A stretch of 57,413 bases of DNA. It comes from an uncultured Desulfurococcales archaeon (GTDB lineage Archaea; Thermoproteota; Thermoprotei_A; Sulfolobales; WANQ01). Both the position numbers and the translations under genes were made by a program. The stretch spans positions 45,436 through 102,848 of the forward strand of contig CAYUVB010000001.1 of the NCBI GenBank assembly GCA_964448055.1, in the 5' to 3' direction. Of the stretch, positions 8,194-54,905 are shown in pieces (the first letter of the stretch is position 1; each line of letters begins with the position of its first letter). A model generated the notes under the pieces. The model did no database searches. It saw nothing but the letters and a program-made list of their open reading frames with translations, and had not been told where the DNA came from.

Positions 8194-8383
8194 GGTCATT
8201 AGACCCTCCATATTTCTATACTTGATGAAGTAGTGCAATATAATTAAGATAAAGTTGATAGAAATAGTGTGAATACCATATCCAATACAATTCCAATACT
8301 ATTCATGTATTATGTGTATTAGGGCTAGGTTTTATAGTTTAAACTTTAATCTAGTCACAATGTATTGGGGGACTGACGGCTCT

Positions 8384-10023: not shown

Positions 10024-10080
10024 GTCTAGTTATCACCCATGATGGAATGATGTGTTAGGGTTTATTAGACTGTCTTAGTA

Positions 10081-10851: not shown

Positions 10852-12068
10852 GTCTTAAAGAAAAGGCTATAAAAGCATTATCTAAGAAGGCTAAGTATGG
10901 CCCCGATATAAGCTTAGAGGATTATATAATTGAGATGCATGAACCAAGTGTTTCTGAGGAGGAAGTACTTGAGAAGATAAGAGAGCCTGCCAGTAGACTT
11001 GGTATGAGCAATAAAGAATTAAGCCAAGCTAGTTATATACAAGTCAACGAGTTAATTCTCCATCGTGCATTAATAGAAGGACTTAGAAAACAAGGAGTAA
11101 TAGTGATGAGCACAGGTGAAGCACTAAGAAAGATACCATGGGTTAAAGAATATTATTGGAAGAATGTTGATGTATCACAGGATAAGTATACTGCTGCAGT
11201 AGAACTATATGGTAAGAGGCAAGGCTACTTCATATATGTTCCACCAGGAGTCAAGGTAAAATATCCCATATACACTTGTCTCCTAATAACAGATAATAGA
11301 CAAGCACAATTAGTCCATAACATAGTGATAGTTGATGAAGGAGCTGAACTGAATTTAGTAACAGGCTGTGCTACTGGACATAGGGTTAAGACAGCACTAC
11401 ATATAGGTGTATCAGAGTTCTATGTCAAGAAGAATGCTAAACTATCATTTGCTATGATACATGCCTGGGGCAGCGGTATTCACGTTAGACCTAGAACTAG
11501 TGTAAGGGTCTGGGAGGGAGGAGAATATATTAGCTATTACTTGATATACAGTGATGTAGCTAGTATTCAACAGTATCCATCAGTAAGATTAAGTCGTAAA
11601 GCAAAACTTCATACAGCCTCAATTATAGTTGGCTCAGGTAACTCCATATACGATGTAGGCTCAGAAGCAGTACTTGAAGATGAGGAAGCCAGTGCTGAAA
11701 TAATCTCAAGAGTTGTCGCTAAAGATGAAGCATGGGTTGCAGCTAGAGCACATATAATGGCGTACCATGGTGCTACGCGTGGTCACATAGAGTGCTTAGG
11801 GCTGCCATTATCAAGTAAGGCAACCATTAAGGCTTTACCGGAACTAGAAACCCATGTTGAAGGAGCAGAACTTACACATGAAGCAGCTATAGGCAAGATA
11901 GCTGAGGAGGAAATAGAGTACTTGATGTCACGTGGATTCACAGAGGATGAAGCACGTGCATTAATACTACGTGGATTCCTAAGGGTAGACATGCCTGGTC
12001 TACCACTCACTATACGCAAGACGATAGACCATGTAGCTCGTATGCTTGCTGAAAGAGCTACTGGTTAA
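10848..12068 (+). CDS. sufB: Fe-S cluster assembly scaffold, SufB/SufD family
   Basis: 406-aa ORF overlapping the sufC stop by 4 nt. It has beta-helix-type SufB/D core repeats (HNIVIVDEGAELNLVTGC..., IISRVVAKDEAWVAARAHI) and a C-terminal LTHEAAIGKI motif. Confidence 0.85.
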   Translation: MSLKEKAIKALSKKAKYGPDISLEDYIIEMHEPSVSEEEVLEKIREPASRLGMSNKELSQASYIQVNELILHRALIEGLRKQGVIVMSTGEALRKIPWVKEYYWKNVDVSQDKYTAAVELYGKRQGYFIYVPPGVKVKYPIYTCLLITDNRQAQLVHNIVIVDEGAELNLVTGCATGHRVKTALHIGVSEFYVKKNAKLSFAMIHAWGSGIHVRPRTSVRVWEGGEYISYYLIYSDVASIQQYPSVRLSRKAKLHTASIIVGSGNSIYDVGSEAVLEDEEASAEIISRVVAKDEAWVAARAHIMAYHGATRGHIECLGLPLSSKATIKALPELETHVEGAELTHEAAIGKIAEEEIEYLMSRGFTEDEARALILRGFLRVDMPGLPLTIRKTIDHVARMLAERATG

Positions 12069-21363: not shown

Positions 21364-23001
21364 ATGCTTATTAGCTTAATAGCAGAAGTTATCTGGTGGG
21401 AGTATAAGGTAATGCTTAATGCCACTAGGAGAATAGCATTAGTACTGATAATAATACTATTGTTTTCTAATATTTTGTGTTCAACTGGTATTCAAAGACA
21501 TGGCGAAGATGTAGGTTCTATACCATTAATCATAACCATAGATGATTACAAGGAAACTATTAAATCATTTTACGGCATTATAAACAATACATCAATATCA
21601 AGTAGTCTTCTAAGATTGCTAGCACTAAGTACAAGTATTACGAATAATACCTCCTTAAAGCTAACTAGCATACTACTGAACATTACTTCTAAGTTAAGAA
21701 AAATGTTATTGGAAAATCCAAATCCATTAATAAGCCGTTATGATTATACTCGCCTTGCTCTGGTTTTAAGCGTTGTAGATTACTATAATGGTTCATTAAT
21801 AGTAGATCCATTATTGTTTATAAAACTACTTAAATCTTATGAAAAAGCTCGTCAGCACTACATTCTAGAAAGCATAAGGACTAGGGATCCAGAACTAGCG
21901 ATATTAATAGAGAACTACCTTAAGCTAGCTCAATCAAATAATACGACGAGTTCGAATAAGCTGCTCGCTATTATAAGAAGTAAAGTAAAAGAATACGTGG
22001 AAAAAGGGAACCTAGATATTATCCCACTTGTAGTAGAGGTGCTAAAACAAGGTATTAGTGATATATTTATCGTTGATAGGGTAGTGTTTGCCGAATACGT
22101 AAATAATACATCAATCCTTCTAGAGAAGCAAGGCTTTATCGATATAGCTAGGAGATTACGTAGGATAGCTTCTCAACTTTATGGAGGATTTGTTGTTAAA
22201 GCTTGGAGAGATCTTAAATTACTTCAAGAAGAAGTTCTAAAACTTAACATAACGCTTACACAGGACTTAGCCTTCAAGTTAGCATCAATATTAGCAGTTA
22301 CCAGTATTACATATGATAGAATATACATAAACTTAAAGAACAAACCCGGTATCATTCAAACCATAGCTAATATCCTCATGTTGAGAGACTATACTCTTCG
22401 TAGAAAAATATATGAAACAATAATATTAGGATCTAGCCTTAAGCATTTTCCCTCCAATAAAGAGCAAACTGTTGATATAACAAGCTTTATGATTTCCCAA
22501 GTGCTTATGGAATCCAGCTCTGGTAGTCTTGAACTCCTTAGTCTAAGACAGCCATTACCAGTGAATTATCGTATAGAAGAAAATATGGTGGTTAAGCCTA
22601 TAGAGAATACAAGTACAATTCTTATAATTATAGTATCAAGCATGGGTATGCTTGCTATATTAATTCATAGTATTTTGGAAACATCTAAGCCTATACGCAA
22701 GATAGGAGAAAAGATAAGCCAAGGATACAAACCCAGTATATCATTTGAAGGCGCTAAAGCAAGAATTGTTGAAGCATATATCAAGGCTCTCTTACTATTA
22801 GAAGCTAAAGGTCATGGAAGAAAACCTTGGGAAACACCAAGGGAGCATCTTAATAGAATAAAGTCTATACCCTGCTATGAAGGGTTTAAGCGAATTGTAG
22901 AATACTATGAGGAAACCGTTTTTTCAGACCATGACATGAGGCTAAATGTAATCGATGAAGTTTACCACTACCTCAAAATGGTTGAAGAAAGTTGCGGCTA
23001 A
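21364..23001 (+). CDS. bitopic membrane protein with large sequon-rich extracytoplasmic domain and cytoplasmic DUF4129-like tail
   Basis: 545 aa with an N-terminal TM, many NxS/T sequons and a second TM (ILIIIVSSMGMLAILIHSIL). The C-terminal segment EAYIKALLLLEAKGHGRKPWETPREHL...IVEYYEETVFSDHD fits the DUF4129 pattern. Only 1 nt separates it from the upstream gene. Confidence 0.6.
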   Translation: MLISLIAEVIWWEYKVMLNATRRIALVLIIILLFSNILCSTGIQRHGEDVGSIPLIITIDDYKETIKSFYGIINNTSISSSLLRLLALSTSITNNTSLKLTSILLNITSKLRKMLLENPNPLISRYDYTRLALVLSVVDYYNGSLIVDPLLFIKLLKSYEKARQHYILESIRTRDPELAILIENYLKLAQSNNTTSSNKLLAIIRSKVKEYVEKGNLDIIPLVVEVLKQGISDIFIVDRVVFAEYVNNTSILLEKQGFIDIARRLRRIASQLYGGFVVKAWRDLKLLQEEVLKLNITLTQDLAFKLASILAVTSITYDRIYINLKNKPGIIQTIANILMLRDYTLRRKIYETIILGSSLKHFPSNKEQTVDITSFMISQVLMESSSGSLELLSLRQPLPVNYRIEENMVVKPIENTSTILIIIVSSMGMLAILIHSILETSKPIRKIGEKISQGYKPSISFEGAKARIVEAYIKALLLLEAKGHGRKPWETPREHLNRIKSIPCYEGFKRIVEYYEETVFSDHDMRLNVIDEVYHYLKMVEESCG

Positions 23002-23948
23002 CACCCTACATTATAGGATTAATAGTAATAGGTCTTATTGCAGCTCTCCTATCACCTGGAACACTTGTTGAAATAGAATATGCATTACATTATGGAATTC
23101 CCTCAATGTATAATATTGAGTGGAACGGCACGTCAATGCTTGCATCAATATTAACTAGTAATGGTTTTAAGGTAGTTGAAGCATATACTGTAGTAGACCC
23201 CATAATATTAGCCGAGGTCCATAATCCAGAAAGGATAATATATGTTTACATAGCACCGCAGTATCCATTAACCTCTAGAGATGTTAATATAGTTGAGACG
23301 TTAATGAATAAATATGCTTTAAGTTTACTGGTCTGTGATGAAGCCAATACATCCAACATTCTACTATCAAAGTATGGACTATGGGTTTCTGGAAGAATAA
23401 TTTATACAAGCTATGGATCACCTTACCCATTAGCCTACTTCAAAATAGGTAATTATAGCGGCTTATTTGTGCTAAACTATGCTTCAAGTATAGGCTATGC
23501 GGGACATGTGCGAGTAATAGGTGAAACACTTGATGGAGATATAGTAGGAGTTATGTTAAGAAAAGGAGATGACATCGTAGCGGTGATTTCTGATAGTTCT
23601 CTATTCATAAACTTAATGTTATCTAAGTCGACTTCCTACATGAACTATAGTAAACTAGTGGAAGAATTATTTAAGTACTTAACTGGAGGTTCTAGTCCCA
23701 GGAAAACACTTGTTATAATAGACTTAACTCATTATAGTGGACCTAGTCCAAGAAAAATAGCTGAAATTACAGGTAAAGGTTACGCTATTCTTCATCCACT
23801 AGTTATAGTACAATTATTATCTACGTACACTTTGTATGTAGAAGAAGTGATGGTTAGAGAATTAGTAGAAAATTATCCAATTATACTAACATATATCTTC
23901 ATTACGCTCTTATCGCTTCTTGTAATCTACAATATACTTAGACCTTAA
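22992..23948 (+). CDS. DUF4350-like membrane-anchored protein
   Basis: 318 aa with a TTG start overlapping the upstream gene by 10 nt. It has N- and C-terminal TMs and a periplasmic-type alpha/beta domain (NGTSMLASILTSNGFKVVEAY). The DUF4350 call rests on architecture and neighbours. Confidence 0.5.
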   Translation: MRLTPYIIGLIVIGLIAALLSPGTLVEIEYALHYGIPSMYNIEWNGTSMLASILTSNGFKVVEAYTVVDPIILAEVHNPERIIYVYIAPQYPLTSRDVNIVETLMNKYALSLLVCDEANTSNILLSKYGLWVSGRIIYTSYGSPYPLAYFKIGNYSGLFVLNYASSIGYAGHVRVIGETLDGDIVGVMLRKGDDIVAVISDSSLFINLMLSKSTSYMNYSKLVEELFKYLTGGSSPRKTLVIIDLTHYSGPSPRKIAEITGKGYAILHPLVIVQLLSTYTLYVEEVMVRELVENYPIILTYIFITLLSLLVIYNILRP

Positions 23949-24678
23949 GCTTAGCTAGTGCCTCAAATACTATTCTCGAAGCTTTCTCAACTCTAGGTGC
24001 AAGCTCCTTAGCGCCAGCGAAACCACTTGGTTCAACTAAGCTATCACTTACTATGAGCATTGCTGCAGCTTTAAATCCGCGCATAAGGCCTAGTGCAAAT
24101 AATGTAGCACATTCCATTTCAACACAAATTACTCCCCTACTACCCCAGCGCTTAGCGAAATCTGGGTCTTCAGCATAGAAGGCATCGCTACTAAACACTG
24201 GTCCTATGTATATTTTCTCACCTTGTTTCTCAGCTTCCTCTACGAGTAGTTTAGTGAGTTCAAAATCTGGAACAGCAGCCATACTTCCATCCGGTACATA
24301 CATACCAAGAGTAGCACCGCCATGAGGATATGCCGCACCAGTTGCAACAATAAAATCACCTATCTTCAATCCCTTAACCATTGCACCACATGTACCAAGT
24401 CTTATCATAGCTTTTGCTCCAAGCATGAAGAGTTCTTCGAAAACTATTGCAGCTGATGGTGCACCTATGCCATGAGTTGCAACGGTTATTGGTACACCCT
24501 TATATTCTCCCGTATATACTAGGAATCCACGGTTCTCGTTAACTAACCGTGGATTATCTAAGAACTCTACTAATTGTTTTACTCTTGCAGGATCACCAGC
24601 AACAACTACACGTTCAGCTATATCTCCTTTTTTAGCCTTTATATGAACTGGTTCATGAAACACCATAACTAGAACCAC
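23938..24678 (-). CDS. purine/uridine nucleoside phosphorylase, PNP/UDP family 1 (DeoD/MTAP-I type)
   Basis: VVVAGDPARV, GVPITVATHGIGAPSAAIVFEEL, IRLGTCGA and CVEMECATLF are typical family motifs. The true start may be the ATG at 24666. Confidence 0.85.
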   Translation of the reverse strand: MVLVMVFHEPVHIKAKKGDIAERVVVAGDPARVKQLVEFLDNPRLVNENRGFLVYTGEYKGVPITVATHGIGAPSAAIVFEELFMLGAKAMIRLGTCGAMVKGLKIGDFIVATGAAYPHGGATLGMYVPDGSMAAVPDFELTKLLVEEAEKQGEKIYIGPVFSSDAFYAEDPDFAKRWGSRGVICVEMECATLFALGLMRGFKAAAMLIVSDSLVEPSGFAGAKELAPRVEKASRIVFEALAKLKV

Positions 24679-24814
24679 CTCCTCTACAATTTTATCTGTC
24701 CTTCATAAATTAATATATCCTAGTATCTAAGTCTATCCCGAGTAAAGTTTGTAGATATAGTTAATACATAATACTCCTGGTATGATTAACATATGCTAAT
24801 CTGGAGGAAGTAAT

Positions 24815-26089
24815 TTGAATAGAAGTAAGATAGCATACTTTATTCATAAATTTGTGGTAAAAGTATTTGGGCTCACTAATTATGTATTATCAATGAAGCT
24901 TACATTAACTTTAAGTTTAACCCTATTATTTATTCCACTAGCTATAGTCTTTGCTAATAGGGATGTCTACCCGTTTATAGCTGCTTTGCAAATACCTTTA
25001 CTTCTTCTTCCACTTATTATCAAGAATACAATAGATAATACTACTATTTCGGTTACAAGGATAGTGCATAGGGGTGTGGAGAGACATGGAGCAAAAGCTA
25101 GGATTATATTACGTAATAGCTCAAATAATATTGTAAAGATAAGTGTAGAGGAAAGAATTACGGACAAAGTAATTATTAAGCCCAGCAAGCTTGAAGCTCT
25201 TATTGGACCATATGAGGAATCCACCGTAGAATACAACATATATGCTCCGATAGGCAAACATATTCTTAAGCCATCAACCATAGTAGTATATGATCAGATA
25301 GGTCTCATGGGCAAAGAGATAGAGGCAGAAATACTAGGCGACAATGAGGTAAGAATTAAGCCCGAAATAGCTGAGGCAGAAATTCCTAGAGGATCACTAG
25401 TAGTATATCCTGTCATAGGTGAAGGTTTTAGGAGTAGATTACGTGGAGTAGGCTTTGATTTTCAAGGCCTTAGGGAATACACTTATGGTGATCCCGTTAA
25501 ACTAATTGACTGGAAAACTAGTGCTAAATTACAAAAACTTTACATCAAGGAATATGCTATAGAATCAGGTATTCTATTAATACTAGGTCTTATGGTAGAC
25601 GTGGAGGATTTTCAAGGTAAACCTTCAAACTACGAGTTGTTTGCCAGGAGTATTTCCACGATATCATATTACTTACTACTTCGTGGAGCAAGTATTGGTT
25701 TAGCAATAGTATCGCCAGGTAACCTAATAACAGTGCCACCAGGACGTGGACTAAAATACATTGATAGTATACTTAACGCCTTCTCAGAAGTACCCTGGAT
25801 TAAGGATTCAGTTGATATAGCAGGATTCTTTTCCGGGATAACTAAGATGACATTACATCATACTAGGCCGAGAACTCTATTAATATTTGGCGAAGGCTCT
25901 AGGAAATACACTCAAGTAATAGTAGAGAATGTAAGAAAAAGTAGATTGCTCGGACTAAGTGATATCCGTGTAGCAGTATTAAATAATGATAAAATAACAG
26001 GGATGCTTACTAGACTAGGATTTCATGCAGGATCTATAAGTTCTCCTGATGATCTATATGAGTTGCTAAAGTTAGCGGTGATTATGTGA
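24815..26089 (+). CDS. DUF58 domain protein (vWA-like, MoxR-associated family)
   Basis: DUF58 signature LREYTYGDPVKLIDWKTSAKLQKLYIKEY and two N-terminal TMs. The ATG at 24893 (MKLTLTL...) is a likelier start than the TTG at 24815. Confidence 0.7.
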   Translation: MNRSKIAYFIHKFVVKVFGLTNYVLSMKLTLTLSLTLLFIPLAIVFANRDVYPFIAALQIPLLLLPLIIKNTIDNTTISVTRIVHRGVERHGAKARIILRNSSNNIVKISVEERITDKVIIKPSKLEALIGPYEESTVEYNIYAPIGKHILKPSTIVVYDQIGLMGKEIEAEILGDNEVRIKPEIAEAEIPRGSLVVYPVIGEGFRSRLRGVGFDFQGLREYTYGDPVKLIDWKTSAKLQKLYIKEYAIESGILLILGLMVDVEDFQGKPSNYELFARSISTISYYLLLRGASIGLAIVSPGNLITVPPGRGLKYIDSILNAFSEVPWIKDSVDIAGFFSGITKMTLHHTRPRTLLIFGEGSRKYTQVIVENVRKSRLLGLSDIRVAVLNNDKITGMLTRLGFHAGSISSPDDLYELLKLAVIM

Positions 26090-27078
26090 GGTATGTTATC
26101 TTAAAGTTAAGTAGGATAGCGTATCCTTTAATAATGGCCATGGGCGTTTATATAGCTTTAGCTTCTTCTAGGCTTACTCCTTCACCATTACTATTTATTA
26201 TAACTACTACTATAAGTTTAGCACTGGTTCTTGAATCTATTCGTATAGCACTTTTAGATGAAATAGGTCTAGGTGATGTAGGTCTACTAATATTATCAGC
26301 TAACATATTAGGCTTCATAGGTCTACTTGATGAAGTACTAACACTTATGTATTCTTTAGCAATACTATTGGTGTTAATTGATGGATCTAAGGTTTTGTTT
26401 ACTAGAAATGTGTTTAATTTCTTAAAAAGCAATAAGCTGTTAATAATGTTTATGTTAATGTACTTAATTATGGTTTTTGTTATTATCCATTTAGATATTT
26501 TAGCAGTATTAGCTGGCATGCTTGGACTAGAGAGTGTTAGGAGTTTCATAACCTTACTTTTGGCATCTAAGTCTTCATATATGCTTTTGGGTGTACTTAT
26601 AGGGTTGGCATTGGTAGTAATAGCAAATACGGTAATAGTACGTAAGTCAATCAAGGAGTCATTGCATGAGCTAGAACTTAGCTTAGAAAACGAACTGTAT
26701 AGTACAAGTATTGGGCAAGTAATTGTAGTTGAGTTTATGTTGATATTAATAGCATTTATTATTTATCCATTAGTAATCTATTCATTGATGTTGGTGCGGT
26801 TACCTAGTGGCCTACCTTACATAATGGGTGTAATTATATCCTTTATTGTATGGGTTATCCTACGTAAAGCAGTTTATGGGTTAATATCATTAAGTATAGG
26901 TGGGGAAAGCAGAAAGTTAAAGGTGTTATGGGTTACTGTAGGTTGCATTGTATCAATCTATATTATTGTATCTGAGGTTCTCGGCTATGATCTAAGCATA
27001 TTTAATGAAGTATACAAGGGTATAACTAGGTTAGAAATTAAGTCTATAAAATTATTAATAGAATTACTATGGGGTTGA
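26086..27078 (+). CDS. polytopic membrane protein
   Basis: 330 aa with about 8 TMs. The GTG start overlaps the DUF58 stop by 4 nt. Confidence 0.5.
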   Translation: MRYVILKLSRIAYPLIMAMGVYIALASSRLTPSPLLFIITTTISLALVLESIRIALLDEIGLGDVGLLILSANILGFIGLLDEVLTLMYSLAILLVLIDGSKVLFTRNVFNFLKSNKLLIMFMLMYLIMVFVIIHLDILAVLAGMLGLESVRSFITLLLASKSSYMLLGVLIGLALVVIANTVIVRKSIKESLHELELSLENELYSTSIGQVIVVEFMLILIAFIIYPLVIYSLMLVRLPSGLPYIMGVIISFIVWVILRKAVYGLISLSIGGESRKLKVLWVTVGCIVSIYIIVSEVLGYDLSIFNEVYKGITRLEIKSIKLLIELLWG

Positions 27079-27292: not shown

Positions 27293-29437
27293 TTACCTGA
27301 TCTTTGCTCTGATCACTATGATTATAGCTGTAATTATGACTCCTAGTACCAGTCCTAGGAGTAGTCCTAGTATTAAGTTATTTAGTGTGGTTGTGGTTAC
27401 AGGTATTGTTATTGTTTTTTCTGCAGTATGTGTTTCAGTTACAGTTACTGTAGCAGTTTTCTCCTTAGTTTCAGTAGTTGTAATAGCTGTTGTCGTTACT
27501 GTTGTTGCTGTAGTAGTCTTTGTTATGTTTTTCTCAATAGTATGTGTTATGTTTACATAACTTGTTCTTGTTACTGTAACTGTTACAGTTTCTCTATGGA
27601 TAATAGTGACTGTTGGTAAGGCTGTTATTGTTATACCTACTTGAGGTTTAGGTATACTTGCCTCTACAAGCGCTTTTAGCACTTGCGCATGTAGTGAAGC
27701 TAGCATGTAGTAATATATTGTAGTAGCCCAGTCTTCTTCTATACCTTTATGCGCTTCAGCCAGCTCCATATAATTCAATGCTATTAGCGGTATTGCTCCT
27801 ACATCGAATGCATCTCTTATAGAGGCCTTGGTTTCCTTCTCAACTACTTGAATTATACCTCCTATACCTGTTTTAAATAATTCATGTATAGCTACAACAC
27901 TAGAGGCTACAGCATGTATTGATGCAGCTATGCTACCATAGGTGTCATTGTTTGAGAAGGCTTTCATAGCTAAATCAACATTCATTAGAGCCTCGTCATA
28001 GCTTGAAGGCTTACTGCCAATATCTGATACCAGTGTTTCAAGATAGCTAAAGCTACTTTTAGCCATAGCTAGTAGGCTTTCAGCTATATCTTTAACAGCT
28101 TGTGAGTTTATCATAGACGTGCTTACTCTTGACATTAATAACCATTGTTTAGCGCTATCGGCCCTGGCCTTTGCAAAAGCTAACATATATATTAGTTTAT
28201 CTAGATCACTCCAGCTGGTAACTTTCTTAAGCATATTTATTGACTCATTAAATATTAGTTCAGATAAGTAATAACGGTATCTTGCAGCCAGCAGTGCTTC
28301 AAACTCTGAGAATGTTTCAGCTTTACTAGCCATTACTATGTAGCGTGTAGCTATTATAGTGTTATTTACCTCATTCACAAACTCAGCTAACCTACTATCA
28401 TCGAGATACACTTTAGCATACTCAAGTGCAGTCAACCCCTCAATATAGCTTGTAAATGCATAGCTAGCAGCCTCATAGTACATTTTTGATAATAAGGAAG
28501 ATGATGCTTGTTCCGCATAATTCAAGGATTCATTTATATGTCTTTCAATTATATATCTCACAGGGTATGGTATCTTCTTAGCCAGTTCAAGTGCTTGTTT
28601 CCTAGCATCTTCGCTTCTAGTGAGATAGCTATGTGTCCAGCTAATGACTATGTTAACGGCTTCGCTGGGAAGTTGTGGTAGAGTTATACCACTTGGTAAG
28701 CTTATGTTCATTCCAGTAAAATAGTAAAATGCTTCACGAACGCTTGCAACCTCTACAACTGTAACATTTAATTGTTTTCCAAGCTCTACCACATCTACTG
28801 GTACATATTCTGTTCTAACAAGATATCCTCCGGGTATAGGTTCTCTTACAATCTTTCTAACGTATACTACTCTCTGCCCTATAGGTATGAGGAATACCTT
28901 TGTACCAACTTCTGCAGCAGCTTTAAGCTTAGCAGGAATACCTCCTACGGGTCCTATACTTCCATCGGGACATATCATGCCTGTCATCATTACGTCTGGT
29001 CTAAGGGTCTTATTTAGGAACAAACTTAGTAGTGCGATAGTCATTGCTCCTCCTGCACTAGGACCACCTATTATGAGACTACTGCTCTTCATCCTTATGA
29101 AATAGTCATAGCTATTGAAGCTCTTGCCTGCAATGGTAGCTGCTATTAGAGCGGCTATCCTAGCAGTGGCTTGGGTATCAAGTTCTGTCAATGGTTCTGC
29201 GCTGAAGTATACAATACCATTACCTGGATAAGCTATTGATACATAAAGATCCGCAACAACTCCTCCTTCCTCTTCGCCCCCTATAGTTGTAACAGCTGGA
29301 ACTTTAATGTGTGTACTCTTTATCCATATATAGGATGTACTTGTCTCTGTAACTGCTATGACAGTTAATAATGGTGATACCATAGAGATTAATAGAATAA
29401 TAGCAATAAGCGACTTATATGCCGAAGCCAATATCAT
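27293..29437 (-). CDS. surface-anchored Lon-like (S16) serine protease with helical domain, Thr-rich stalk and C-terminal TM anchor
   Basis: 714 aa with an N-terminal signal/anchor. The Lon proteolytic motif is LIIGGPSAGGAM (Ser127), with GGIPAKLKAAAEVG (Lys170) following. The Ser-Lys spacing of 43 residues equals that of E. coli Lon S679/K722. The C-terminal part is a T/V-rich stretch plus the TM LILGLLLGLVLGVIITAIIIVI. Confidence 0.75.
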   Translation of the reverse strand: MILASAYKSLIAIILLISMVSPLLTVIAVTETSTSYIWIKSTHIKVPAVTTIGGEEEGGVVADLYVSIAYPGNGIVYFSAEPLTELDTQATARIAALIAATIAGKSFNSYDYFIRMKSSSLIIGGPSAGGAMTIALLSLFLNKTLRPDVMMTGMICPDGSIGPVGGIPAKLKAAAEVGTKVFLIPIGQRVVYVRKIVREPIPGGYLVRTEYVPVDVVELGKQLNVTVVEVASVREAFYYFTGMNISLPSGITLPQLPSEAVNIVISWTHSYLTRSEDARKQALELAKKIPYPVRYIIERHINESLNYAEQASSSLLSKMYYEAASYAFTSYIEGLTALEYAKVYLDDSRLAEFVNEVNNTIIATRYIVMASKAETFSEFEALLAARYRYYLSELIFNESINMLKKVTSWSDLDKLIYMLAFAKARADSAKQWLLMSRVSTSMINSQAVKDIAESLLAMAKSSFSYLETLVSDIGSKPSSYDEALMNVDLAMKAFSNNDTYGSIAASIHAVASSVVAIHELFKTGIGGIIQVVEKETKASIRDAFDVGAIPLIALNYMELAEAHKGIEEDWATTIYYYMLASLHAQVLKALVEASIPKPQVGITITALPTVTIIHRETVTVTVTRTSYVNITHTIEKNITKTTTATTVTTTAITTTETKEKTATVTVTETHTAEKTITIPVTTTTLNNLILGLLLGLVLGVIITAIIIVIRAKIR
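27370..27600. repeat. low-complexity GTT/ACT-rich coding repeat (encodes the Thr/Val-rich stalk)
   Basis: Imperfect reiteration of GTTACTGTT/ACAGTTAC-type units. The opposite strand yields spurious V/C-rich ORFs. Confidence 0.7.
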
Positions 29438-32625: not shown

Positions 32626-33128
32626 TCCTCCTACTTTTACCTATAGGTATTGTTTCAACAGTGCTAGCCTACTATTACTATACTAAAATAGCCAGTTATT
32701 GTTGCTTATCTTTTGGTGTATTAGAAGATAGTAGAAGAGAAGAGGTGTTAAAACCTCCTCGTTGGAGTAATGTTTTGGCTTCGAGAATAGAATTCATTGA
32801 TGAGACTGTATTGGATATACTACGTAGTATGATAAGGAGAACAGAGTCACGTTCCACCACATTATTGGGGATACATGTTTTTCCACATGGTGTAGGTTCT
32901 CTTCAATTATTGAGATTATATATTGGATCGTTCATAAGGTTGTGGAGACGTGTAGGCTTTTTCAATTCGGTTACTTTCTACTTAAAGACTATTAAGGTAA
33001 GAATGCTCTATAGTAAAGTTTTAAGACTTCATAGGTCTAACAAGCTTCATGGGTATAGACTCATTGCTTCAAGGTTGTTTAATGAAATAATTGAGTTGAA
33101 CAAGATCATTGAGGCGTATAGTAGTTGA
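32607..33128 (+). CDS. N-terminally anchored basic protein, function unknown
   Basis: 173 aa. It overlaps the upstream gene by 19 nt and the moxR start by 4 nt. Confidence 0.4.
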   Translation: MVFEEIVLLLLPIGIVSTVLAYYYYTKIASYCCLSFGVLEDSRREEVLKPPRWSNVLASRIEFIDETVLDILRSMIRRTESRSTTLLGIHVFPHGVGSLQLLRLYIGSFIRLWRRVGFFNSVTFYLKTIKVRMLYSKVLRLHRSNKLHGYRLIASRLFNEIIELNKIIEAYSS

Positions 33129-34099
33129 ATCCACGTGATGTATACATAATTGCTGAGAAAGTGAGGAGACAGGTTTCAAGAGTTATTGTGGGTAAAGAGG
33201 ATGTTGTTGATCGACTATTAATAGCATTACTTGTCGGAGGACACGTATTGTTAGAAGGTGTTCCAGGTGTTGCTAAGACGTACCTAGCTAGATCCTTTGC
33301 AAAAACTCTAGGATTGAAGTTTAAAAGAATTCAGCTCACGCCAGATCTACTACCAAGCGATATAATTGGTGTTAAGGTATACAATTATAAGACAATGGAG
33401 TTTGAATTTAGGCCTGGACCAGTATTCACTAATATATTATTAGCTGATGAAATAAACCGTACACCTCCTAGAACTCAAGCAGCGTTACTCGAGGCAATGC
33501 AGGAGAAACAGGTAACTGTTGATGGTGAAACCTATAAATTACCTGAACCATTTGTTGTAATAGCTACTCAAAATCCTGTTGAAACAGAAGGTACTTACCC
33601 GTTACCTGAAGCACAACTTGATCGATTTTTGTTTAGAGTAATAGTAAATTACCCCTCAAGGAATGAAGAAGTTGAGATGCTTAGGATTAAGAGGGTTAAA
33701 GGTGAAGTAATAGACGTGGACCAGATAGCTGGTCCTAAAGAAGTGTTAGAGGCTTCAAAGACTGTTGCCGAGAAAGTTAAGGTCGATGATGCTATACTTG
33801 AATACATAGTTGATCTCGTAAGAGCTACACGTGAACATCCATCAGTACTTTTGGGTGGTAGCCCTAGAGCCGAGGTAATGCTTCTTTATGCTTCAAGAGC
33901 TTATGCAGCTATTAGTGAGGGTAGAGATTACGTGGTTCCTGATGATGTGAAAGCGGTTTTCTTTGATGTAATGAACCATAGGATTATACTAAGACCGGAA
34001 TATGTTATAGGCACGTATAGTCGTGAACCTTTATGGAGTTACCGTGCAATACATGGTATACTTAGCTCAGTAGTAGAGAAGGTTAGGGTCCCCAAGTAA
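33125..34099 (+). CDS. moxR: MoxR-family AAA+ ATPase
   Basis: Walker A LLEGVPGVAKT, Walker B ILLADEINR and VIATQNPVETEGTYPLPEAQLDRF. 324 aa is the typical MoxR length. Confidence 0.92.
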   Translation: MNPRDVYIIAEKVRRQVSRVIVGKEDVVDRLLIALLVGGHVLLEGVPGVAKTYLARSFAKTLGLKFKRIQLTPDLLPSDIIGVKVYNYKTMEFEFRPGPVFTNILLADEINRTPPRTQAALLEAMQEKQVTVDGETYKLPEPFVVIATQNPVETEGTYPLPEAQLDRFLFRVIVNYPSRNEEVEMLRIKRVKGEVIDVDQIAGPKEVLEASKTVAEKVKVDDAILEYIVDLVRATREHPSVLLGGSPRAEVMLLYASRAYAAISEGRDYVVPDDVKAVFFDVMNHRIILRPEYVIGTYSREPLWSYRAIHGILSSVVEKVRVPK

Positions 34100-35409
34100 T
34101 GGTTTTATTAACTTCTAAAGCACAAATACTAATTATTGTGTCACTCCTAACATTACCATTAGGGTTACTAACTCTTAGAATGGAAGTAATACTATTTTCA
34201 CTAATAATCCTTATATCTATCGCACTAGATGTAATTTACTTTACACATAGTATTAGAGAAGTTGAAGTTAATGCTTGGAGAGATAGGATCCCAGAAAGAG
34301 TTATAGTTGACTCGATAATACCTGTTAAAGTCTATGTGAAGATCAAGGGTTTCCGAGGAATAGTTAGTGTTCATGACCATGTACCTGATGTTTTCCAAAT
34401 TACTGAAGGCAGAACAAGCTTGTATACAAGAGTACATGAGAACCAAGTTATCAAGTTAGAATATGTATTCAAAGCCGTTGTCCGCGGAGATCATAGAATT
34501 GGGCCCCTAACGGTAATACTACATAGTCCTCTAGGCCTGGTAGGTAAACGTATAGACTTACCTAAGAACACTATCAATTACATTAAAGTAGTTCCACAAT
34601 TCTATGCGTATAGGTTTAAGACTAGAGAGACTATTGCTAGGTACATTATGCCTCCTGGTGGACATCCAGTTAGGATGCGTGGTCTAGGTGTAGATCTCGA
34701 ATACATACGTAACTATCTACCAGGTGATGATGTTAGGAAAATTGCCTGGAAGGTTTCAGCTAAGAACCCTAGAAGAGAACTTATGGTTAAGGAGACTAGT
34801 AGTGAGGTAAGATTAAGCTTATTTATAGTACTAGATGCCGGAATAGAATCAAGCTTAGGTTATCCTCGTAGGCTTATAGACTACTATGTTGAAGCTGCAG
34901 GGTCTTTGATTCTTGCTGCTCTTGATCATGGTGATCTCGTAGGGTTATATATCTCAGGTACGCCGAGTCTCCTAGTACCATTAACAAGGAGGAAAGAGTA
35001 CTTATACATGGCCCTCAAGTTCCTTGAAACACTTAACCCTAGCAATACTAGATCAATACTTCATCGAGTACCTAGTGTACTAGCATCAGCTTTACCAAGA
35101 AGGTCTATAGTCTTCTACTTTTCAAGCCTTGAGAACATTATCGATGTAAAAGGCATAGCTGAGAAGACTAGAGCCTTAGGGCATAAACCAGTCTTCATGA
35201 TACCCTATACACCATCCTTTATAAGAATAAGCGTAGATAAATTACCATTAAAATACTTCTATAATAAGGTGCTTATCGATGAAATTAACAGGTTAAAACA
35301 AGTAGTTAATGAACTGGTAGCTGCTGAAGCTGAAGTAGTAATACTTAAACCCGTAGATTTTGTCTCCAAGGTTCTAAAAATCTATTATTCACTAAGGGAG
35401 CTTGCATGA
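34099..35409 (+). CDS. DUF58 domain protein (vWA-like, MoxR partner)
   Basis: TAATG overlap with moxR. Two N-terminal TMs and the signature IRNYLPGDDVRKIAWKVSAKNPRRELMVKE. Confidence 0.8.
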   Translation: MVLLTSKAQILIIVSLLTLPLGLLTLRMEVILFSLIILISIALDVIYFTHSIREVEVNAWRDRIPERVIVDSIIPVKVYVKIKGFRGIVSVHDHVPDVFQITEGRTSLYTRVHENQVIKLEYVFKAVVRGDHRIGPLTVILHSPLGLVGKRIDLPKNTINYIKVVPQFYAYRFKTRETIARYIMPPGGHPVRMRGLGVDLEYIRNYLPGDDVRKIAWKVSAKNPRRELMVKETSSEVRLSLFIVLDAGIESSLGYPRRLIDYYVEAAGSLILAALDHGDLVGLYISGTPSLLVPLTRRKEYLYMALKFLETLNPSNTRSILHRVPSVLASALPRRSIVFYFSSLENIIDVKGIAEKTRALGHKPVFMIPYTPSFIRISVDKLPLKYFYNKVLIDEINRLKQVVNELVAAEAEVVILKPVDFVSKVLKIYYSLRELA

Positions 35410-49945: not shown

Positions 49946-50665
49946 TTGAATAAAATAGGGCTAACGTTAGTACTAATGGTAGTATTCATTATTGGTGTTG
50001 TGCTTACTAGTACAGAGTTGTATAGACCGTCTATGTTTAAGAGTATATCATGGAATAAAGCTGTGACATTAACAGATGACAACATAATAATAGATATAGA
50101 GTACGCTAAACCTTTAAGCCCGAGACAAATAGTCATAATGGTTCATAGTACAGTATATGAATCAGATAAGAAAATATGGCATGAACTAGGTATAGCCCGA
50201 AGACTATTAAATTATGATAGTGCTGTAGTTCTATTCGACTTGAGATTCCATGGTAACAGTACACCTGCCTTAGCTAGTGGGCCAGTAACGTTACCTCAGG
50301 AAAACATGAAATACTATGGTGAAGACCTAGAATCAGTTATCAAATGGGCCAAGAAAAATCTTGGATCACTACCAATAATAATAGTATGCTACGGTGATTC
50401 CAGTAAAATCGTCCTAGAACATGCGCTAAAGGATAGCAGTATTAAAGGCATTGTATTAATACTTGCTAAGTATGCCGATATAGTGGATCTTATAGAAAAG
50501 AATCATAAACCGATACTAGTATTATCAGACGATAATTCATGGCACAATATAGGAAATGTACTATATGTAGGCATATATCGTGATTATCAAGGTAAACCTC
50601 TATGGGATGAATCGGATCTCGATATACTATTCAACTGGATTAAAAACATAGGATTGACGTCCTAA
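49946..50665 (+). CDS. membrane-anchored alpha/beta-hydrolase-fold protein (degenerate)
   Basis: N-terminal TM, FDLRFHGNS, and paralogy to the next gene. No clean GxSxG motif (CYGDSSK). Confidence 0.45.
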   Translation: MNKIGLTLVLMVVFIIGVVLTSTELYRPSMFKSISWNKAVTLTDDNIIIDIEYAKPLSPRQIVIMVHSTVYESDKKIWHELGIARRLLNYDSAVVLFDLRFHGNSTPALASGPVTLPQENMKYYGEDLESVIKWAKKNLGSLPIIIVCYGDSSKIVLEHALKDSSIKGIVLILAKYADIVDLIEKNHKPILVLSDDNSWHNIGNVLYVGIYRDYQGKPLWDESDLDILFNWIKNIGLTS

Positions 50666-50786
50666 GCTATATTCAGAATAAGTCCACTTCTTCCAAATAA
50701 AGTTCTTCATAAACTTAATACAGAATAGATAAAGTAATTAGGGTGTCTAACCAGTTATTTTCGTACTAAAGCTTCCGGGATCCTAC

Positions 50787-51620
50787 GTGTCCAAGAACGT
50801 AATCGTTATCGTATTGTTGTTATCTGCATTAGTTGTAATACTATTGCTCTCTCATTTACATCTAGTAAACCTTACATGGAGAGGAAATAGTCAAGTTGAA
50901 TGGAAGGTCATGAGTTTGCAGATAGGTGAGGACATAATATTATCAGTGTATTATTCTGAGGTAGGCTTTCAGCCTAAGGCATTAATTGTGATTATTCCTG
51001 GATTTCGTGAAACATGCAGTATGTGGAATACTACGGGGCTTCCACAAGAATTAGCTAGTAAAGGCTTTGCCACTGTTTCATTTGATTTAAGAGGGCATGG
51101 TGGTAGTATTCGAAGACCTAATGGTGTATTTGTTAGCATAGAAGAATTATCTGAGAGGGATTATAATAGAATGAATTTTGATGTTAAAGCAGTTGTAGAA
51201 ATATTTAAGGAGTACTTTCATGTGAATAAGGTTTACTTGATAGGCTCTGACATTGGGGCTTCATTAGCAGTAGCATATGCTGTAAAAGATAAGGATGTAA
51301 AAGGCTTGATACTAATTTCACCTAACTTCGAGTCGGCAATACCATTCCCTGTGGAGTTTTTAGAGAAATATGTAGAACGTGGTGGAAAAGCAATATTTAT
51401 TTACAGCCGGGAGGACTCATTATCTATCAATGTTATAAATAATGTTATAAATACGGTAAGGAATATTAGTGGAATAAATGAAACCGTAGGCAACATATTC
51501 TATTATGCATCAAATAAGGTGGGTCATGGCATATCACTAATGCTTAATGACAATAAAATCTTATCGAAAATATTACAGTTCATAGACCTATTTTATGTGG
51601 AGAATTCTAGAAATACCTAG
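50787..51620 (+). CDS. membrane-anchored alpha/beta hydrolase
   Basis: N-terminal TM, IIPGFRE, and FDLRGHGGS. The nucleophile elbow is LIGSDIGAS (Asp at the nucleophile position). A late GHG is also present. Confidence 0.6.
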   Translation: MSKNVIVIVLLLSALVVILLLSHLHLVNLTWRGNSQVEWKVMSLQIGEDIILSVYYSEVGFQPKALIVIIPGFRETCSMWNTTGLPQELASKGFATVSFDLRGHGGSIRRPNGVFVSIEELSERDYNRMNFDVKAVVEIFKEYFHVNKVYLIGSDIGASLAVAYAVKDKDVKGLILISPNFESAIPFPVEFLEKYVERGGKAIFIYSREDSLSINVINNVINTVRNISGINETVGNIFYYASNKVGHGISLMLNDNKILSKILQFIDLFYVENSRNT

Positions 51621-51678: not shown

Positions 51679-53304
51679 CTAGGCTGGCTTGATGCTTAAT
51701 TGTTCTAGGTCTATTCTAAACCTTAGAATTCCTTTACTACTTGATACTAGTGCTTCAGCGTATCGTGCACTTGTATTCTTTAGCCTTAGTATATTGTAGC
51801 TTCTTATTCCATTGTATTTTAGTACGTAGTCTATTAGGTTTTCTATTATCTTCGAATCATAGTTATATCCTGTAACTCTAACTCTTCCATCAATACCTGC
51901 ATGTATGCTTATGTTTACAGCACCTATTATCCATGAGATAACCCATCCACCATTTCCATCGTCTTCTATATTTCTTAGCTTCGGCTTAGTGAATCCTAGT
52001 CTGGCTAGTAGTTTAAGTGATTGTTCTAGAGCGTATCTACGTGAAAGTTCAACTCTACGTAGCTGTGGTACTAGTGGATACTCTACTAGGTAAACATAGT
52101 TTCTTATACCATCTGTGGCAGCAGCAACGAAACTTGAACCAGCTCTACGTATACTTGTGACCCTTAATCCATTGGATTCTAGTAGTTTCTTAACAGCTTC
52201 CTCATTAACATCTATATCCATTGATAATACTCTATTCTCTTCAACATCGATCAAGGCTTTAACGTTCACACCTATACCTGAAAGCTCTACTAGCATTTGA
52301 AGAGGTTTTTCTGATTCAATACTCCACTTACTAACATCTAGTTCAATGCCTCTAAGGCCTCTTCGTGAAATTTCTTCTTTGATCTTCTCTATTATTTCTC
52401 TTAATGTTCTGTACTTTCTAATTTCTATTATTCCTTCATCTCCTACTAATACCTTGTATAAACCACCAGGTGTAGATGCAACTACATGAGTTATTTCAGG
52501 AGATTCTGTATTAACTATAGTTAGTGATTCTATTGTTGTTCCAAGTATATCACTTAATAATTCTTCAAGCTTGTCTATTCTTATTCTACGCTTATTAAGA
52601 GTTACTTTACCACTATATTTATTAACAATAAAGTGGAGTTCATAGTAACTTGACTTAACCTTAACGTTATAGTGTATTTCTTTCTCACTAATTTCCACTT
52701 GGTATTCCTCTTCATTTTCTTCTCCAACAAGCTCTTCTATTAGGTCGTCTATAGCTCTTTCAACTATCTTCCTTTTACTATTCTTTTCCCTAAATACTTT
52801 ATCAAGTTTTTTAGCTTCATCAATTACTAGTTCAATAACTTCTTCCTTATTTAATGGCTTAATGTTCCTTACTATGGTTGATTCCCATTCATCTATTTCT
52901 ATTAATCCATTTCTACCATTAATACTTAATCCTATTCTCCACCTAAGTACGACAAGAACAGCTAGCTTTGATTCATTGTATTCTTTTGTTGGATTCATAA
53001 ATATGTTAATATTGTTAAGTTTTAGGGCAATAGCTGATTGTTCTCCAGGCATTATAAGCCTTCCATGGTTTTTCTCAAGCCATTTCTCACCAAACCACTT
53101 CATAAGAGCTATTTTAGCCTTGTATTCGAGTTTCTTTGTACCCGTCTTTTCTACTTCTACGGGTTCAACAAGTACCTCTATACCGTTAACTATAGTCTCT
53201 TCTTTACTAATACCTAGCTCTTCTAATATGCTATATACTTGATCTAGTACTTCTATTGGAGTTCTTTTAGCGTATATTGGTTTTGAGTAGGGAAATGTTA
53301 TCAA
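51679..53304 (-). CDS. 541-aa cytoplasmic repeat protein of unknown function, partner of the BrxL-like ATPase
   Basis: Long ORF with no TM and no catalytic motif recognised. It starts 6 nt after the upstream stop. It appears built from 5-6 beta-rich modules of about 60-70 aa. Confidence 0.55.
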   Translation of the reverse strand: MITFPYSKPIYAKRTPIEVLDQVYSILEELGISKEETIVNGIEVLVEPVEVEKTGTKKLEYKAKIALMKWFGEKWLEKNHGRLIMPGEQSAIALKLNNINIFMNPTKEYNESKLAVLVVLRWRIGLSINGRNGLIEIDEWESTIVRNIKPLNKEEVIELVIDEAKKLDKVFREKNSKRKIVERAIDDLIEELVGEENEEEYQVEISEKEIHYNVKVKSSYYELHFIVNKYSGKVTLNKRRIRIDKLEELLSDILGTTIESLTIVNTESPEITHVVASTPGGLYKVLVGDEGIIEIRKYRTLREIIEKIKEEISRRGLRGIELDVSKWSIESEKPLQMLVELSGIGVNVKALIDVEENRVLSMDIDVNEEAVKKLLESNGLRVTSIRRAGSSFVAAATDGIRNYVYLVEYPLVPQLRRVELSRRYALEQSLKLLARLGFTKPKLRNIEDDGNGGWVISWIIGAVNISIHAGIDGRVRVTGYNYDSKIIENLIDYVLKYNGIRSYNILRLKNTSARYAEALVSSSKGILRFRIDLEQLSIKPA

Positions 53305-53310
53305 GGGGAG

Positions 53311-54762
53311 TTAACCCCATCTTACATTGTATTCTAAGCTAGGAGAGGGGTATTCATTAGGTAAGAGTAAGTGAAGTAATTGTTTAACATAGATGCGTGA
53401 CCTTATTGCAATATCTACTATTTCCTTAAACAGTTGTTTATCTAGTTCACCGTGAGGTGCTATTACTTTTATTAGCCCAGATATAGTACGTGCTATTGCT
53501 TTTTCGTCACGGATTGTAAAGCTCCTCCCCAGTTCAACGTAGTCTAATACCATCTTCCTATAGTCTATTCTACGCAGCTGATGAAGTATTTCTGCATAGA
53601 AGTCTATTACTAGCCCTATAGTCTTTGACAAATGAATACTGCTGACCATGATCTTGGGCAATCTCCACCCGGGTATGAAGCCATGTATACGATCAAGTAA
53701 TGCCGGGTCCTTCATGAATCCTGGTAAGACATTTAACAAGTACTTTACCGAGTTCTCATCAACTAAAATTTCATCGTCTACATTTCCTATGAATACCAAG
53801 CTACAATCACTATGTGCTTGTTTGGGCCCTCGTTCAAAGAACCCGCTTTCCATGTAGTCTTTGAGCTTACCTACTACTTCGTCTTCGTTAGTAAATCTTA
53901 TCCTATTAACTTCGTCGAATACTACAACGTCTTTAATAGCTATAAGACCTGGCTGCTTAGTGACAATATTATAGAATAATTGTGCTGGACTTACTCTTCC
54001 ACCACTTATTATCCGTGAGTAATAGCTTATGTTACGGTATAGGAATGTTTTACCTGTAGCTCGCGGACCAAATTCTGCTAGATTAGAATTAGCTTCAACG
54101 AATGGTACAAGTCTTAGAAGTAGTACTAGTTTCTCCTCCCAGCTATATGCGGCAGGATTCAAACCTATAGTGCTAATAACTACGTCAACCCATTCTCGTG
54201 GATTGAATTTACGTGTAGCTTCAAGGAACCAGTCAAGATCCACACGTGATACTTGGAATGGTGTGAACCCTGTGACTATGACCTTGAACTCGTTATCGGG
54301 TTTGTATGATAACTCTATTATACCCCACATACCTGTTCTCAATAAGTTCTCATGTTCAGCAACAATACTATCATATATTCCAGCATCCTTTAATCCAAGA
54401 CTAGGTATGATTGCTTTTAGAATACCTTTACGTACGTCAACCGTTACCTTCAATTCATCTATTATCTTTATTTTACCTTTAACCATAAGTTCATGTAGAT
54501 ACTTATCACGGTCAGCTGGATCTGGATAATATTTTCTAATAAAGTCAACTAATTTGCGGCAATCATTTTTACGACAGAGTTTTGATACAAGGTATTCCGA
54601 TACATAACGTGGTAGTTTTGAGATATACTGGTTATGTACAAGTGTTTTGTCAACAACTAATCCTTTGAATACCTCTGCAAACCTGACCCATAAGTCCTGC
54701 TTGCCAATCGTAATCCTATTAACACCTACAAAATCCTCGGAGCCAGTAATAATAGTAGACAT
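53311..54762 (-). CDS. short BrxL-like AAA+ ATPase (TIGR02688-type, no Lon protease domain)
   Basis: Walker A FGPRATGKT and Walker B VVVFDEV. The N-terminal ~200 aa follow the BrxL N-domain pattern (FKGLVVDK, LPRYVSEYL, KIKIIDE, GMWGIIELSY, FTPFQ). The ORF ends at 483 aa without a protease domain. Confidence 0.7.
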   Translation of the reverse strand: MSTIITGSEDFVGVNRITIGKQDLWVRFAEVFKGLVVDKTLVHNQYISKLPRYVSEYLVSKLCRKNDCRKLVDFIRKYYPDPADRDKYLHELMVKGKIKIIDELKVTVDVRKGILKAIIPSLGLKDAGIYDSIVAEHENLLRTGMWGIIELSYKPDNEFKVIVTGFTPFQVSRVDLDWFLEATRKFNPREWVDVVISTIGLNPAAYSWEEKLVLLLRLVPFVEANSNLAEFGPRATGKTFLYRNISYYSRIISGGRVSPAQLFYNIVTKQPGLIAIKDVVVFDEVNRIRFTNEDEVVGKLKDYMESGFFERGPKQAHSDCSLVFIGNVDDEILVDENSVKYLLNVLPGFMKDPALLDRIHGFIPGWRLPKIMVSSIHLSKTIGLVIDFYAEILHQLRRIDYRKMVLDYVELGRSFTIRDEKAIARTISGLIKVIAPHGELDKQLFKEIVDIAIRSRIYVKQLLHLLLPNEYPSPSLEYNVRWG

Positions 54763-54905
54763 AACCAGCCTAGCCCTCAGCTAAGAACCTTGTTATATGA
54801 TATGGAGAGTATATAAGACGGTCTCCACATCTATACTAAACTACGTATTTAAGTAATACTCATCAATAACTACCATAGGGTGATAGTACTACTTGTACGG
54901 AGAAT

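Follow-up and report, generated by a model that had tools for sequence, protein, structure and literature searches.

A short BrxL ATPase and a co-conserved repeat protein form a narrowly distributed two-gene module in uncultured Desulfurococcales/Thermoproteota

The window analysed here is a stretch of 57,413 nucleotides (nt) from contig CAYUVB010000001.1 (assembly GCA_964448055.1) of an uncultured Desulfurococcales archaeon. On its minus strand it carries two adjacent genes, one encoding a 483-amino acid (aa) ATPase of the BrxL type and the other a 541-aa protein, hereafter the partner. BrxL is the least understood component of the BREX (bacteriophage exclusion) systems. The pair is a real, undescribed and narrowly distributed two-gene BrxL module, the ATPase family itself being already known. 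The two genes form a single operon with a conserved putative promoter and, to judge from their sequences, both are functional and under purifying selection. An undescribed module had been proposed in a preliminary description of the window; both open reading frames (ORFs) lie where it placed them and every peptide it quoted occurs in the translations. In the literature searched there is no description of the BrxL-partner pairing, of the partner family or of a BREX-free housekeeping context, and nothing relevant on TIGR02688, on BrxL together with PepSY domains or on orphan BrxL.

The sequence of the 483-aa protein identifies it as a bona fide short BrxL of the TIGR02688 type, which lacks a Lon domain. 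It scores 487.7 bits against the NCBIfam model TIGR02688 (curated cutoff 329.3 bits, E 2.9e-146) over profile positions 3–447 of 449, and the short family named in the preliminary description is thus the correct one. The N-terminal pattern and the AAA+ core that had been read by eye are both recognised by Pfam (Table 1). The model of the long BrxL, TIGR02653, is matched over positions 6–459 of 675, at 343.7 bits against a cutoff of 628.25, and a Lon-like C-terminal domain was not found. The PADLOC models of BrxL, including those of 482 aa, also match the protein, and it aligns to residues 14–456 of the Acinetobacter BrxL structure 8EMC with an E-value of 7.9e-77. One member of its 90% cluster carries the public annotation 'BREX system Lon protease-like protein BrxL [Desulfurococcaceae archaeon]'.

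The motifs of the window BrxL are intact and the enzyme is predicted to be catalytically competent. Residues K238, D283, E284, N327, R358 and R418 are all present, and they are invariant in 121 members of the family. After the motifs known from MCM (minichromosome maintenance) proteins, we take N327 to be sensor-1 and R358 and R418 to be arginine fingers; the ALLDR motif of BrxL resembles the arginine-finger motif of MCM. In the alignment, the Walker B glutamate is the counterpart of the essential E280 in 8EMC. The BrxLs that are linked to a partner show no clade-specific diagnostic substitutions within the alignment of 121 members.

The BrxL_N region is described as a DNA-binding combination of a helix-turn-helix (HTH)-like element and an oligonucleotide/oligosaccharide-binding (OB) fold (PMC12839542, PMC10164562). 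The Acinetobacter BrxL holds double-stranded DNA (dsDNA) in its central pore and passes from a heptameric to a hexameric ring upon DNA binding, with an ATPase site that is essential for phage restriction (PMC10164562). Its Lon-like C-terminal domain joins two rings tail-to-tail, and ATP-dependent ring assembly on DNA has been established for this long BrxL only (PMC10164562). The OB region and AAA+ domain of BrxL are structurally closest to those of the MCMs, although helicase activity could not be demonstrated (PMC10164562). BrxL is not an MCM member at the sequence level, and the window protein is likened to MCM through the BrxL literature. The window BrxL shares the Walker A/B logic of the Acinetobacter Type-1 BREX protein (8EMC/8EMH) and, by analogy, would be expected to form DNA-encircling rings. 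Unlike that protein, it lacks the inactive Lon-like C-terminal domain and is accompanied by none of BrxA, BrxB, BrxC, PglX or PglZ.

The closer likeness in architecture is to the BrxL of Type-4 BREX, which shares the TIGR02688 assignment, the HTH/OB N-terminal region and MCM-like AAA+ domain, a length of about 470–480 aa and the absence of a C-terminal domain. In Type-4 BREX, BrxL is coupled to BrxP (PAPS reductase/DUF4007), BrxC and PglZ (PMC12839542). In contrast, neither the scanned ORFs of the window nor the 10-kb flanks of its syntenic relatives contain BrxP, BrxC or PglZ, and it is a PepSY-like repeat protein that follows BrxL.

The partner constitutes a new protein family that combines a fold-orphan N-terminal domain with cytoplasmic PepSY-like repeats. 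Free of cysteine and without a transmembrane segment or signal peptide, it is predicted to be soluble and cytoplasmic, and it returns no match in Pfam, NCBIfam, PADLOC or PHROGs. An AlphaFold2 (AF2) model built from 10 homologues has a mean predicted local distance difference test score (pLDDT) of 81.3 and a predicted template modelling score (pTM) of 0.49. The model resolves an alpha+beta N-terminal domain, an acidic linker of low confidence and six modules, M1–M6. The N-domain is the most conserved part, with the motifs FPY, VEPV, MKWFGxxW, PGEQ and EW, and is 57–60% identical to the clade of locus L001 and 29% identical to the homologue P0134. Modelled alone, it reaches a pLDDT of 82 and a pTM of 0.71. 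Foldseek finds no significant neighbour of the N-domain in the PDB (best E 0.036, template modelling (TM) score about 0.2), and there is thus no evidence for a nuclease or other enzyme fold.

The residues VEPV, G72/W75, P86-G87-E88-Q89 and E139-W140 are invariant across the partner clades. So too is the linker motif VERxxDxxxxEL (V181-E182-R183-x2-D186-x4-E191-L192), which is retained in all clades including P0134. As a conserved short motif within a disordered region is typical of docking helices, by analogy the linker motif is a candidate docking helix.

The preliminary description had envisaged five to six beta-rich modules in the partner, and the AF2 model agrees with the higher number. 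Each module consists of a helix packed on four antiparallel strands, with a pLDDT of mostly 80–90. The homologue P0134, which is 25% identical to the window partner and collinear with it over about 490 residues (E 4e-23), exceeds the Pfam PepSY cutoff (30.9 bits vs 24) in two stretches, the better of which (248–297) aligns to M2. The likeness of the repeats to PepSY domains therefore appears to hold, through modelled fold topology and through transitive homology by way of P0134. The earlier wording, 'loosely PepSY-like', is borne out in these two respects and not by any direct PepSY match of the window partner. The modules have diverged unequally. Identity to the L001 clade is 44–52% for M4 and M5, 36–43% for M1 and 28–30% for M6, and falls to 11–22% for the acidic M2 and M3, so that M4–M5 are conserved and M2–M3 (nt 52204–52578) hypervariable.

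Peptidase propeptides and YpeB contain PepSY domains, and most known proteins of this kind are secreted or anchored in the membrane, with one to three copies. The partner has in common with the proteins of PF03413 (M4 peptidase propeptides, YpeB), and with BLIP-like inhibitors, a helix lying on a four-stranded antiparallel sheet. It differs from them in being cytoplasmic, in having six highly diverged copies together with a fold-orphan N-domain, and in its coupling to a DNA-type AAA+ ATPase. A beta-propeller, WD40 or clamp identity for the whole partner was considered from Foldseek comparisons with the PDB and BFVD and rejected; the matches, with TM-scores of about 0.1 and a root-mean-square deviation above 30 Å, are local 3Di repeat artefacts, and the helix-and-sheet topology of the modules is thus not confirmed by Foldseek. 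Profile matches to PDB sequences are noise only (ORC3 at E 0.5).

The partner is found in very few genomes. A word-indexed search of 5.8 billion proteins recovered 13 homologues. When 1.84 billion representatives at 50% identity, which stand for about 15 billion proteins, were searched exhaustively with a HMMER profile, only three real partner clusters emerged; a fourth candidate, P0135, was discarded as a spurious low-complexity repeat protein. In a scan of species-representative genomes, the partner occurs only in metagenome-assembled genomes (MAGs) labelled Pyrodictiaceae, Desulfurococcales, Thermoprotei or Thermoproteota. The pair is consequently an extremely narrow, lineage-specific feature rather than a widespread system. 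At every locus with upstream DNA present, the partner starts 1–6 nt downstream of a short BrxL, the recurrence that the preliminary description had asked about. In a neighbour-joining tree of 121 short BrxLs, the partner-linked proteins (the window clade and P0018 from locus L006) group together in 42 of 50 bootstraps, a monophyly that points to a single origin followed by co-divergence of the pair. All pair loci were recovered by searches for the pair itself, so that its constant presence is ascertainment-biased. An empty-site test anchored on cysteinyl-tRNA synthetase (CysRS) in metagenome contigs returned outgroups only, at 56–71% identity, in which synteny is already broken.

Both genes evolve under constraint. 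Compared with the L001/L003 clade, the proteins of the window have amino acid identities of 83% for CysRS, 72% for PAC2, 71–72% for BrxL, 70–71% for the M48 peptidase, 57–59% for XPD, 42% for the partner and 32% for the hydrolase abH1. The ratio of non-synonymous to synonymous substitution rates (dN/dS) was compared between the window and L099, where dS is about 0.3–0.5. It is 0.056 for CysRS, 0.064 for BrxL, 0.14 for both the molybdopterin oxidoreductase and the SDR protein, 0.16 for the partner and 0.165 for the rhomboid protein. Within the partner, the ratio is 0.11 for the N-domain and 0.18 for the modules, and no arms-race signature is present at the scale of this comparison.

The 6-nt spacer between the genes is consistent with co-transcription and possibly with translational coupling. 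The TATA-like box that had been assigned to the pair is located at 54817–54809, 46–55 nt 5′ of the BrxL ATG, and is preceded by a purine-rich element resembling a B recognition element (BRE). Its position and A/T-rich character are kept in L099, L100, L005, L010, L001, L003 and L014, and the combined element is the putative promoter of the pair. Immediately upstream of the ATG lies a near-invariant leader, which holds a Shine–Dalgarno-like GAGGG and a small inverted repeat, TAGC-N5-GCTA. The core of this leader, GCTGAGGGCT, occurs once in the window and is identical in all eight core-clade loci, while the remaining intergenic DNA has diverged; it was not found in L006, L016, L008 or L009. The leader may be an operator or a regulatory element of the 5′ untranslated region.

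Table 1. Positions of the module, its parts and other features in the window
Feature	Position	Strand	Remarks
BrxL-like ORF, 483 aa	53311–54762	−	ATG start
Partner ORF, 541 aa	51679–53304	−	TTG start
Intergenic spacer, 6 nt, CTCCCC	53305–53310	−	BrxL stop to partner TTG
Putative promoter: purine-rich BRE-like GTGGAGAC, then TATA-like CTTATATAC	54809–54826	−	Sequence read
Near-invariant leader of about 24 nt, TTAGCTGAGGGCTAGGCTGGTT	54763–54786	−	Immediately 5′ of ATG
BrxL_N region, residues 30–153	54304–54675	−	Pfam PF20442, E 1.1e-28
BrxL_ATPase, MCM-like AAA+ domain, residues 162–473	53344–54279	−	Pfam PF13337, E 5e-109
Walker A, GPRATGKT, residues 232–239	54046–54069	−	
Walker B, VVVFDEV, residues 279–285	53908–53928	−	
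Partner N-terminal alpha+beta domain, residues 1–176	52777–53304	−	AF2 model
Partner acidic low-confidence linker, residues 177–200	52705–52776	−	pLDDT <50 for 177–198; charge −6
Six PepSY-like modules: M1 201–242, M2 243–298, M3 299–367, M4 368–421, M5 422–483, M6 484–541	51682–52704	−	AF2 secondary structure
Two S33-like hydrolase genes	49946–51620		
714-aa ORF with Lon S16 proteolytic domain	27293–29437	−	Residues 102–186, E 1.4e-12
DUF58 gene set	21364–27078		
DUF58 gene set	33125–35409		

The pair lies outside any defence island or mobile defence cassette. The gene upstream of it encodes the molybdopterin oxidoreductase, on the same strand and 143 nt away, and the downstream neighbour is a convergent alpha/beta-hydrolase gene. 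CysRS and the oxidoreductase make up the flank on one side. The other side holds two alpha/beta-hydrolases, a rhomboid protein, an SDR protein, an XPD-type helicase, a DHH phosphoesterase, PAC2, an M48 peptidase and FeoB. The flanking genes vary between relatives while the pair is constant, as the hydrolases are missing in L099/L100 and the molybdopterin oxidoreductase in L001/L003. At L099 (11627–11940), it is the two S33-like genes that are missing, and the partner there is 90% identical. In L005, a PIN toxin/antitoxin pair is inserted between the two hydrolase genes (11102–11850), so that a variable spot adjoins the invariant pair. There is no tRNA and no integrase in the window, and the GC content is uniform throughout.

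The window scan covered about 30 ORFs, among them all of at least 330 aa and all but a few of 150–290 aa. In these 57 kb, the part of the genome that is visible, no PglZ, BrxC, PglX or BrxP was detected among the ORFs scanned, in agreement with the claim that the BrxL is an orphan with respect to BREX. A large BrxC/PglY ATPase is absent, as the only window ORFs above 700 aa encode FeoB (717 aa) and a Lon_C-domain protein (714 aa). In L001, L003, L005 and L099, no gene called within 10 kb of the pair encodes PglZ. Besides BrxL, PADLOC gives generic matches only in the window, to an ABC-type ATPase and an XPD/DinG helicase. None of the observations that the preliminary description had named as speaking against a module, such as an ATPase from an unrelated AAA+ clade or a partner with a known housekeeping fold, was encountered.

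Two other features of the window are recorded here. The 714-aa ORF has an unusual architecture, with a Lon S16 proteolytic domain near its N-terminus, no detected AAA+ domain and no PADLOC match; it lies about 24 kb from the Lon-less BrxL. There are also two DUF58 gene sets, with DUF58 proteins of 424 and 436 aa. Each DUF58 gene adjoins an ORF of roughly 320–330 aa, one set is near a DUF4129 protein, and the two look like duplicated MoxR/DUF58-type operons.

In the Thermoproteota MAG JAPDJV010000032.1 (L006), which belongs to a distant lineage, the pair occupies a different site, also among housekeeping genes. There, the short BrxL and a 573-aa partner are followed on the same strand by genes for a dCTP deaminase and an AGOG-like 8-oxoguanine glycosylase (6807–11482), with last gaps of 14 and −4 nt.

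Seven archaeal short-BrxL contexts without a partner were sampled, in which BrxL is 46–51% identical to that of the window. A DNA methyltransferase is present in six of the seven, and the seventh (L016) lies among toxin–antitoxin (TA) genes. In three of them, the short BrxL is directly 3′ of a Type IIG restriction-methyltransferase of 1,120–1,255 aa: L008 (4228–9428), L018 (4380–9428) and L101 (277–5055). The Type IIG assignment is based on a PADLOC match of 1188 bits in L008, on 43% identity to the L008 protein in L018 and on Pfam domains in L101. No PglZ or BrxC is in view at these three loci, and the 'Type IIG + BrxL' arrangement of two genes goes without mention in the BREX survey compared. 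L009 (3506–10783) and L017 (1774–10749) carry a five-gene cassette, which comprises a DUF1156/HmaB-like methylase, a 1,079–1,099-aa protein with a weak HmaC-like AAA+ match, a short BrxL and two small proteins of 270–282 and 167–168 aa. The L009 cassette is near an integrase, and the arrangement may be a system so far undescribed, related to BREX or similar to Hma, with BrxL as a component. In L102, the short BrxL follows a methylase and an SMC-like ATPase.

At L016 (7311–13132), a short BrxL of 48% identity and a 509-aa ORFan are separated by a 6-nt gap and lie between VapBC and HEPN/nucleotidyltransferase genes. Aligned to the partner by hhalign, this ORFan reaches a borderline probability of 25% (E 7.6e-4), whereas none of 12 control proteins exceeds 1.2%; the WR and VER..D matches are collinear. 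It may be a remote relative of the partner that evolves very fast, in defence-like surroundings, and is not counted as a homologue. The BrxL-adjacent proteins of the other archaeal cassettes are unrelated to the partner. Taken together, the sampled contexts suggest that short BrxL in archaea is a modular accessory of several cassettes of the restriction–modification (R-M) type and not a BREX-specific part. Those cassettes share the ATPase family with the window, at 45–51% identity, and differ from it in the presence of a DNA methyltransferase or restriction module and in their variable, defence-like regions. The partner-type loci are those without a DNA-modification gene.

The explanation to which we incline, tentatively and with slightly more doubt than belief, is that the pair is a BREX-independent BrxL machine. 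It would consist of a ring ATPase and a dedicated cytoplasmic adaptor, and its function would lean to methylation-independent surveillance of foreign DNA. By homology with the Acinetobacter BrxL, the ATPase would assemble around dsDNA in an ATP-dependent manner, and BrxL and the partner would form a physical complex. The N-domain of the partner and its invariant acidic linker helix may dock onto the ATPase. The six PepSY-like modules, which are of a protein-binding or inhibitor type, may bind, sense or tether protein ligands, with M2–M3 as the variable ligand surface of the adaptor. Binding of a ligand could then control where or when the ring engages DNA. Such a surveillance module would now be a long-term, vertically inherited resident of a Desulfurococcaceae-like lineage. 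Three points place surveillance slightly ahead: all known and sampled relatives are linked to defence, the module is patchily distributed at large scale, and M2–M3 are hypervariable. The link of the short-BrxL family to defence is drawn from the methyltransferase and TA contexts described above.

Several observations weigh against the surveillance explanation. The flanking block is syntenic in L001, L003, L005, L010 and L099, which is atypical for defence genes, and BrxL is about as constrained as CysRS. No methyltransferase or PAPS-reductase domain is present in the window ORFs scanned or in the flanks of the relatives, and hence no component that could distinguish self from non-self; an effector nuclease is likewise absent near the pair. 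Relatives of the partner were not found in a scan of viral contigs or in PHROGs. The apparent four-gene operon of L006 hints at a role in DNA metabolism rather than in immunity. The PepSY-like character has its own difficulties, as neither the window partner nor its isolated modules match PF03413 even at E≤10. Comparison of module with module by hhalign shows no significant similarity (probability at most 4%), so internal duplication of the repeats is not demonstrable from sequence. The stand-alone antiviral system suggested in the preliminary description thus finds no support in the context, given the housekeeping synteny, the CysRS-like constraint and the lack of a modification or effector enzyme. 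An antiviral role is plausible nonetheless.

A wider formulation is possible but doubtful. It holds that this archaeal lineage captured a BrxL together with a bespoke seven-domain adaptor, and that the two serve as a minimal immune module that needs no methylation or, once domesticated, in chromosome maintenance. In either role, the rings would work without BREX methylation, PglZ or BrxC.

A domesticated DNA-maintenance role, ranked next after surveillance, is a serious rival, although we consider it on balance unlikely. Here, an MCM-like ring and its adaptor would act in the replication, repair or chromatin of the host, having derived from defence and lost their immune function. Across clades in which CysRS is 83–90% identical, the chromosomal site is fixed among housekeeping genes: cysS always lies to one side of the pair and the rhomboid/SDR/XPD block to the other. 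It stays in place as hydrolases, a PIN pair and the molybdopterin oxidoreductase come and go around it. The near-equal constraint on BrxL and CysRS, the conserved promoter and leader, the lack of a methylase, nuclease or self/non-self component, the uniform GC content without integrase or tRNA, and the contiguity of the L006 pair with dcd and AGOG on one strand all fit this account. However, no cultured member of the Desulfurococcales has the partner and hardly any other archaea do, so its function is not one of general housekeeping. A low dN/dS is a trait of the family, as strong conservation of short BrxLs is seen in R-M contexts too. In addition, the constant presence of the pair reflects how the loci were found, and two lineages carry it at different genomic sites.

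A proteostasis module, with proteins as the substrate of the AAA+ ring and a protease under the control of the PepSY array, is improbable. PepSY is a domain of the peptidase-inhibitor type, and a rhomboid protein, an M48 peptidase, PAC2 and S33-type hydrolases are nearby, with the Lon_C-domain protein 24 kb away. This protease-rich context is not conserved, however: L099/L100 lack the hydrolases, and the pair of L006 has other neighbours. The solved BrxL, whose relatives are the MCMs, holds DNA and not polypeptide in its pore (PMC10164562). Less credible still is a decaying remnant of a Type 4-like BREX, a type whose described BrxL is the short form (PMC12839542), or the chance adjacency of unrelated genes: purifying selection acts on both genes and their motifs are intact, they remain adjacent at partner identities of 25–90% in two genomic contexts, the BrxLs co-diverge with the partner, and neither pseudogenes of BREX nor large ORFs were detected in the flanks. 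Both the proteostasis role and the BREX remnant are accordingly unlikely.

The significance of the module is limited by its very narrow distribution, in a few uncultured, heat-loving lineages of Desulfurococcales and Thermoproteota, and its role is predicted from sequence and models. An autonomous activity of the ATPase would follow from a stable two-gene BrxL module that selection maintains in the absence of a methylase, PglZ and BrxC. With one ring and one adaptor, the pair would also be a minimal system for biochemistry. If the wider formulation above is true, it would be the simplest natural system in which to learn how BrxL acts on DNA.

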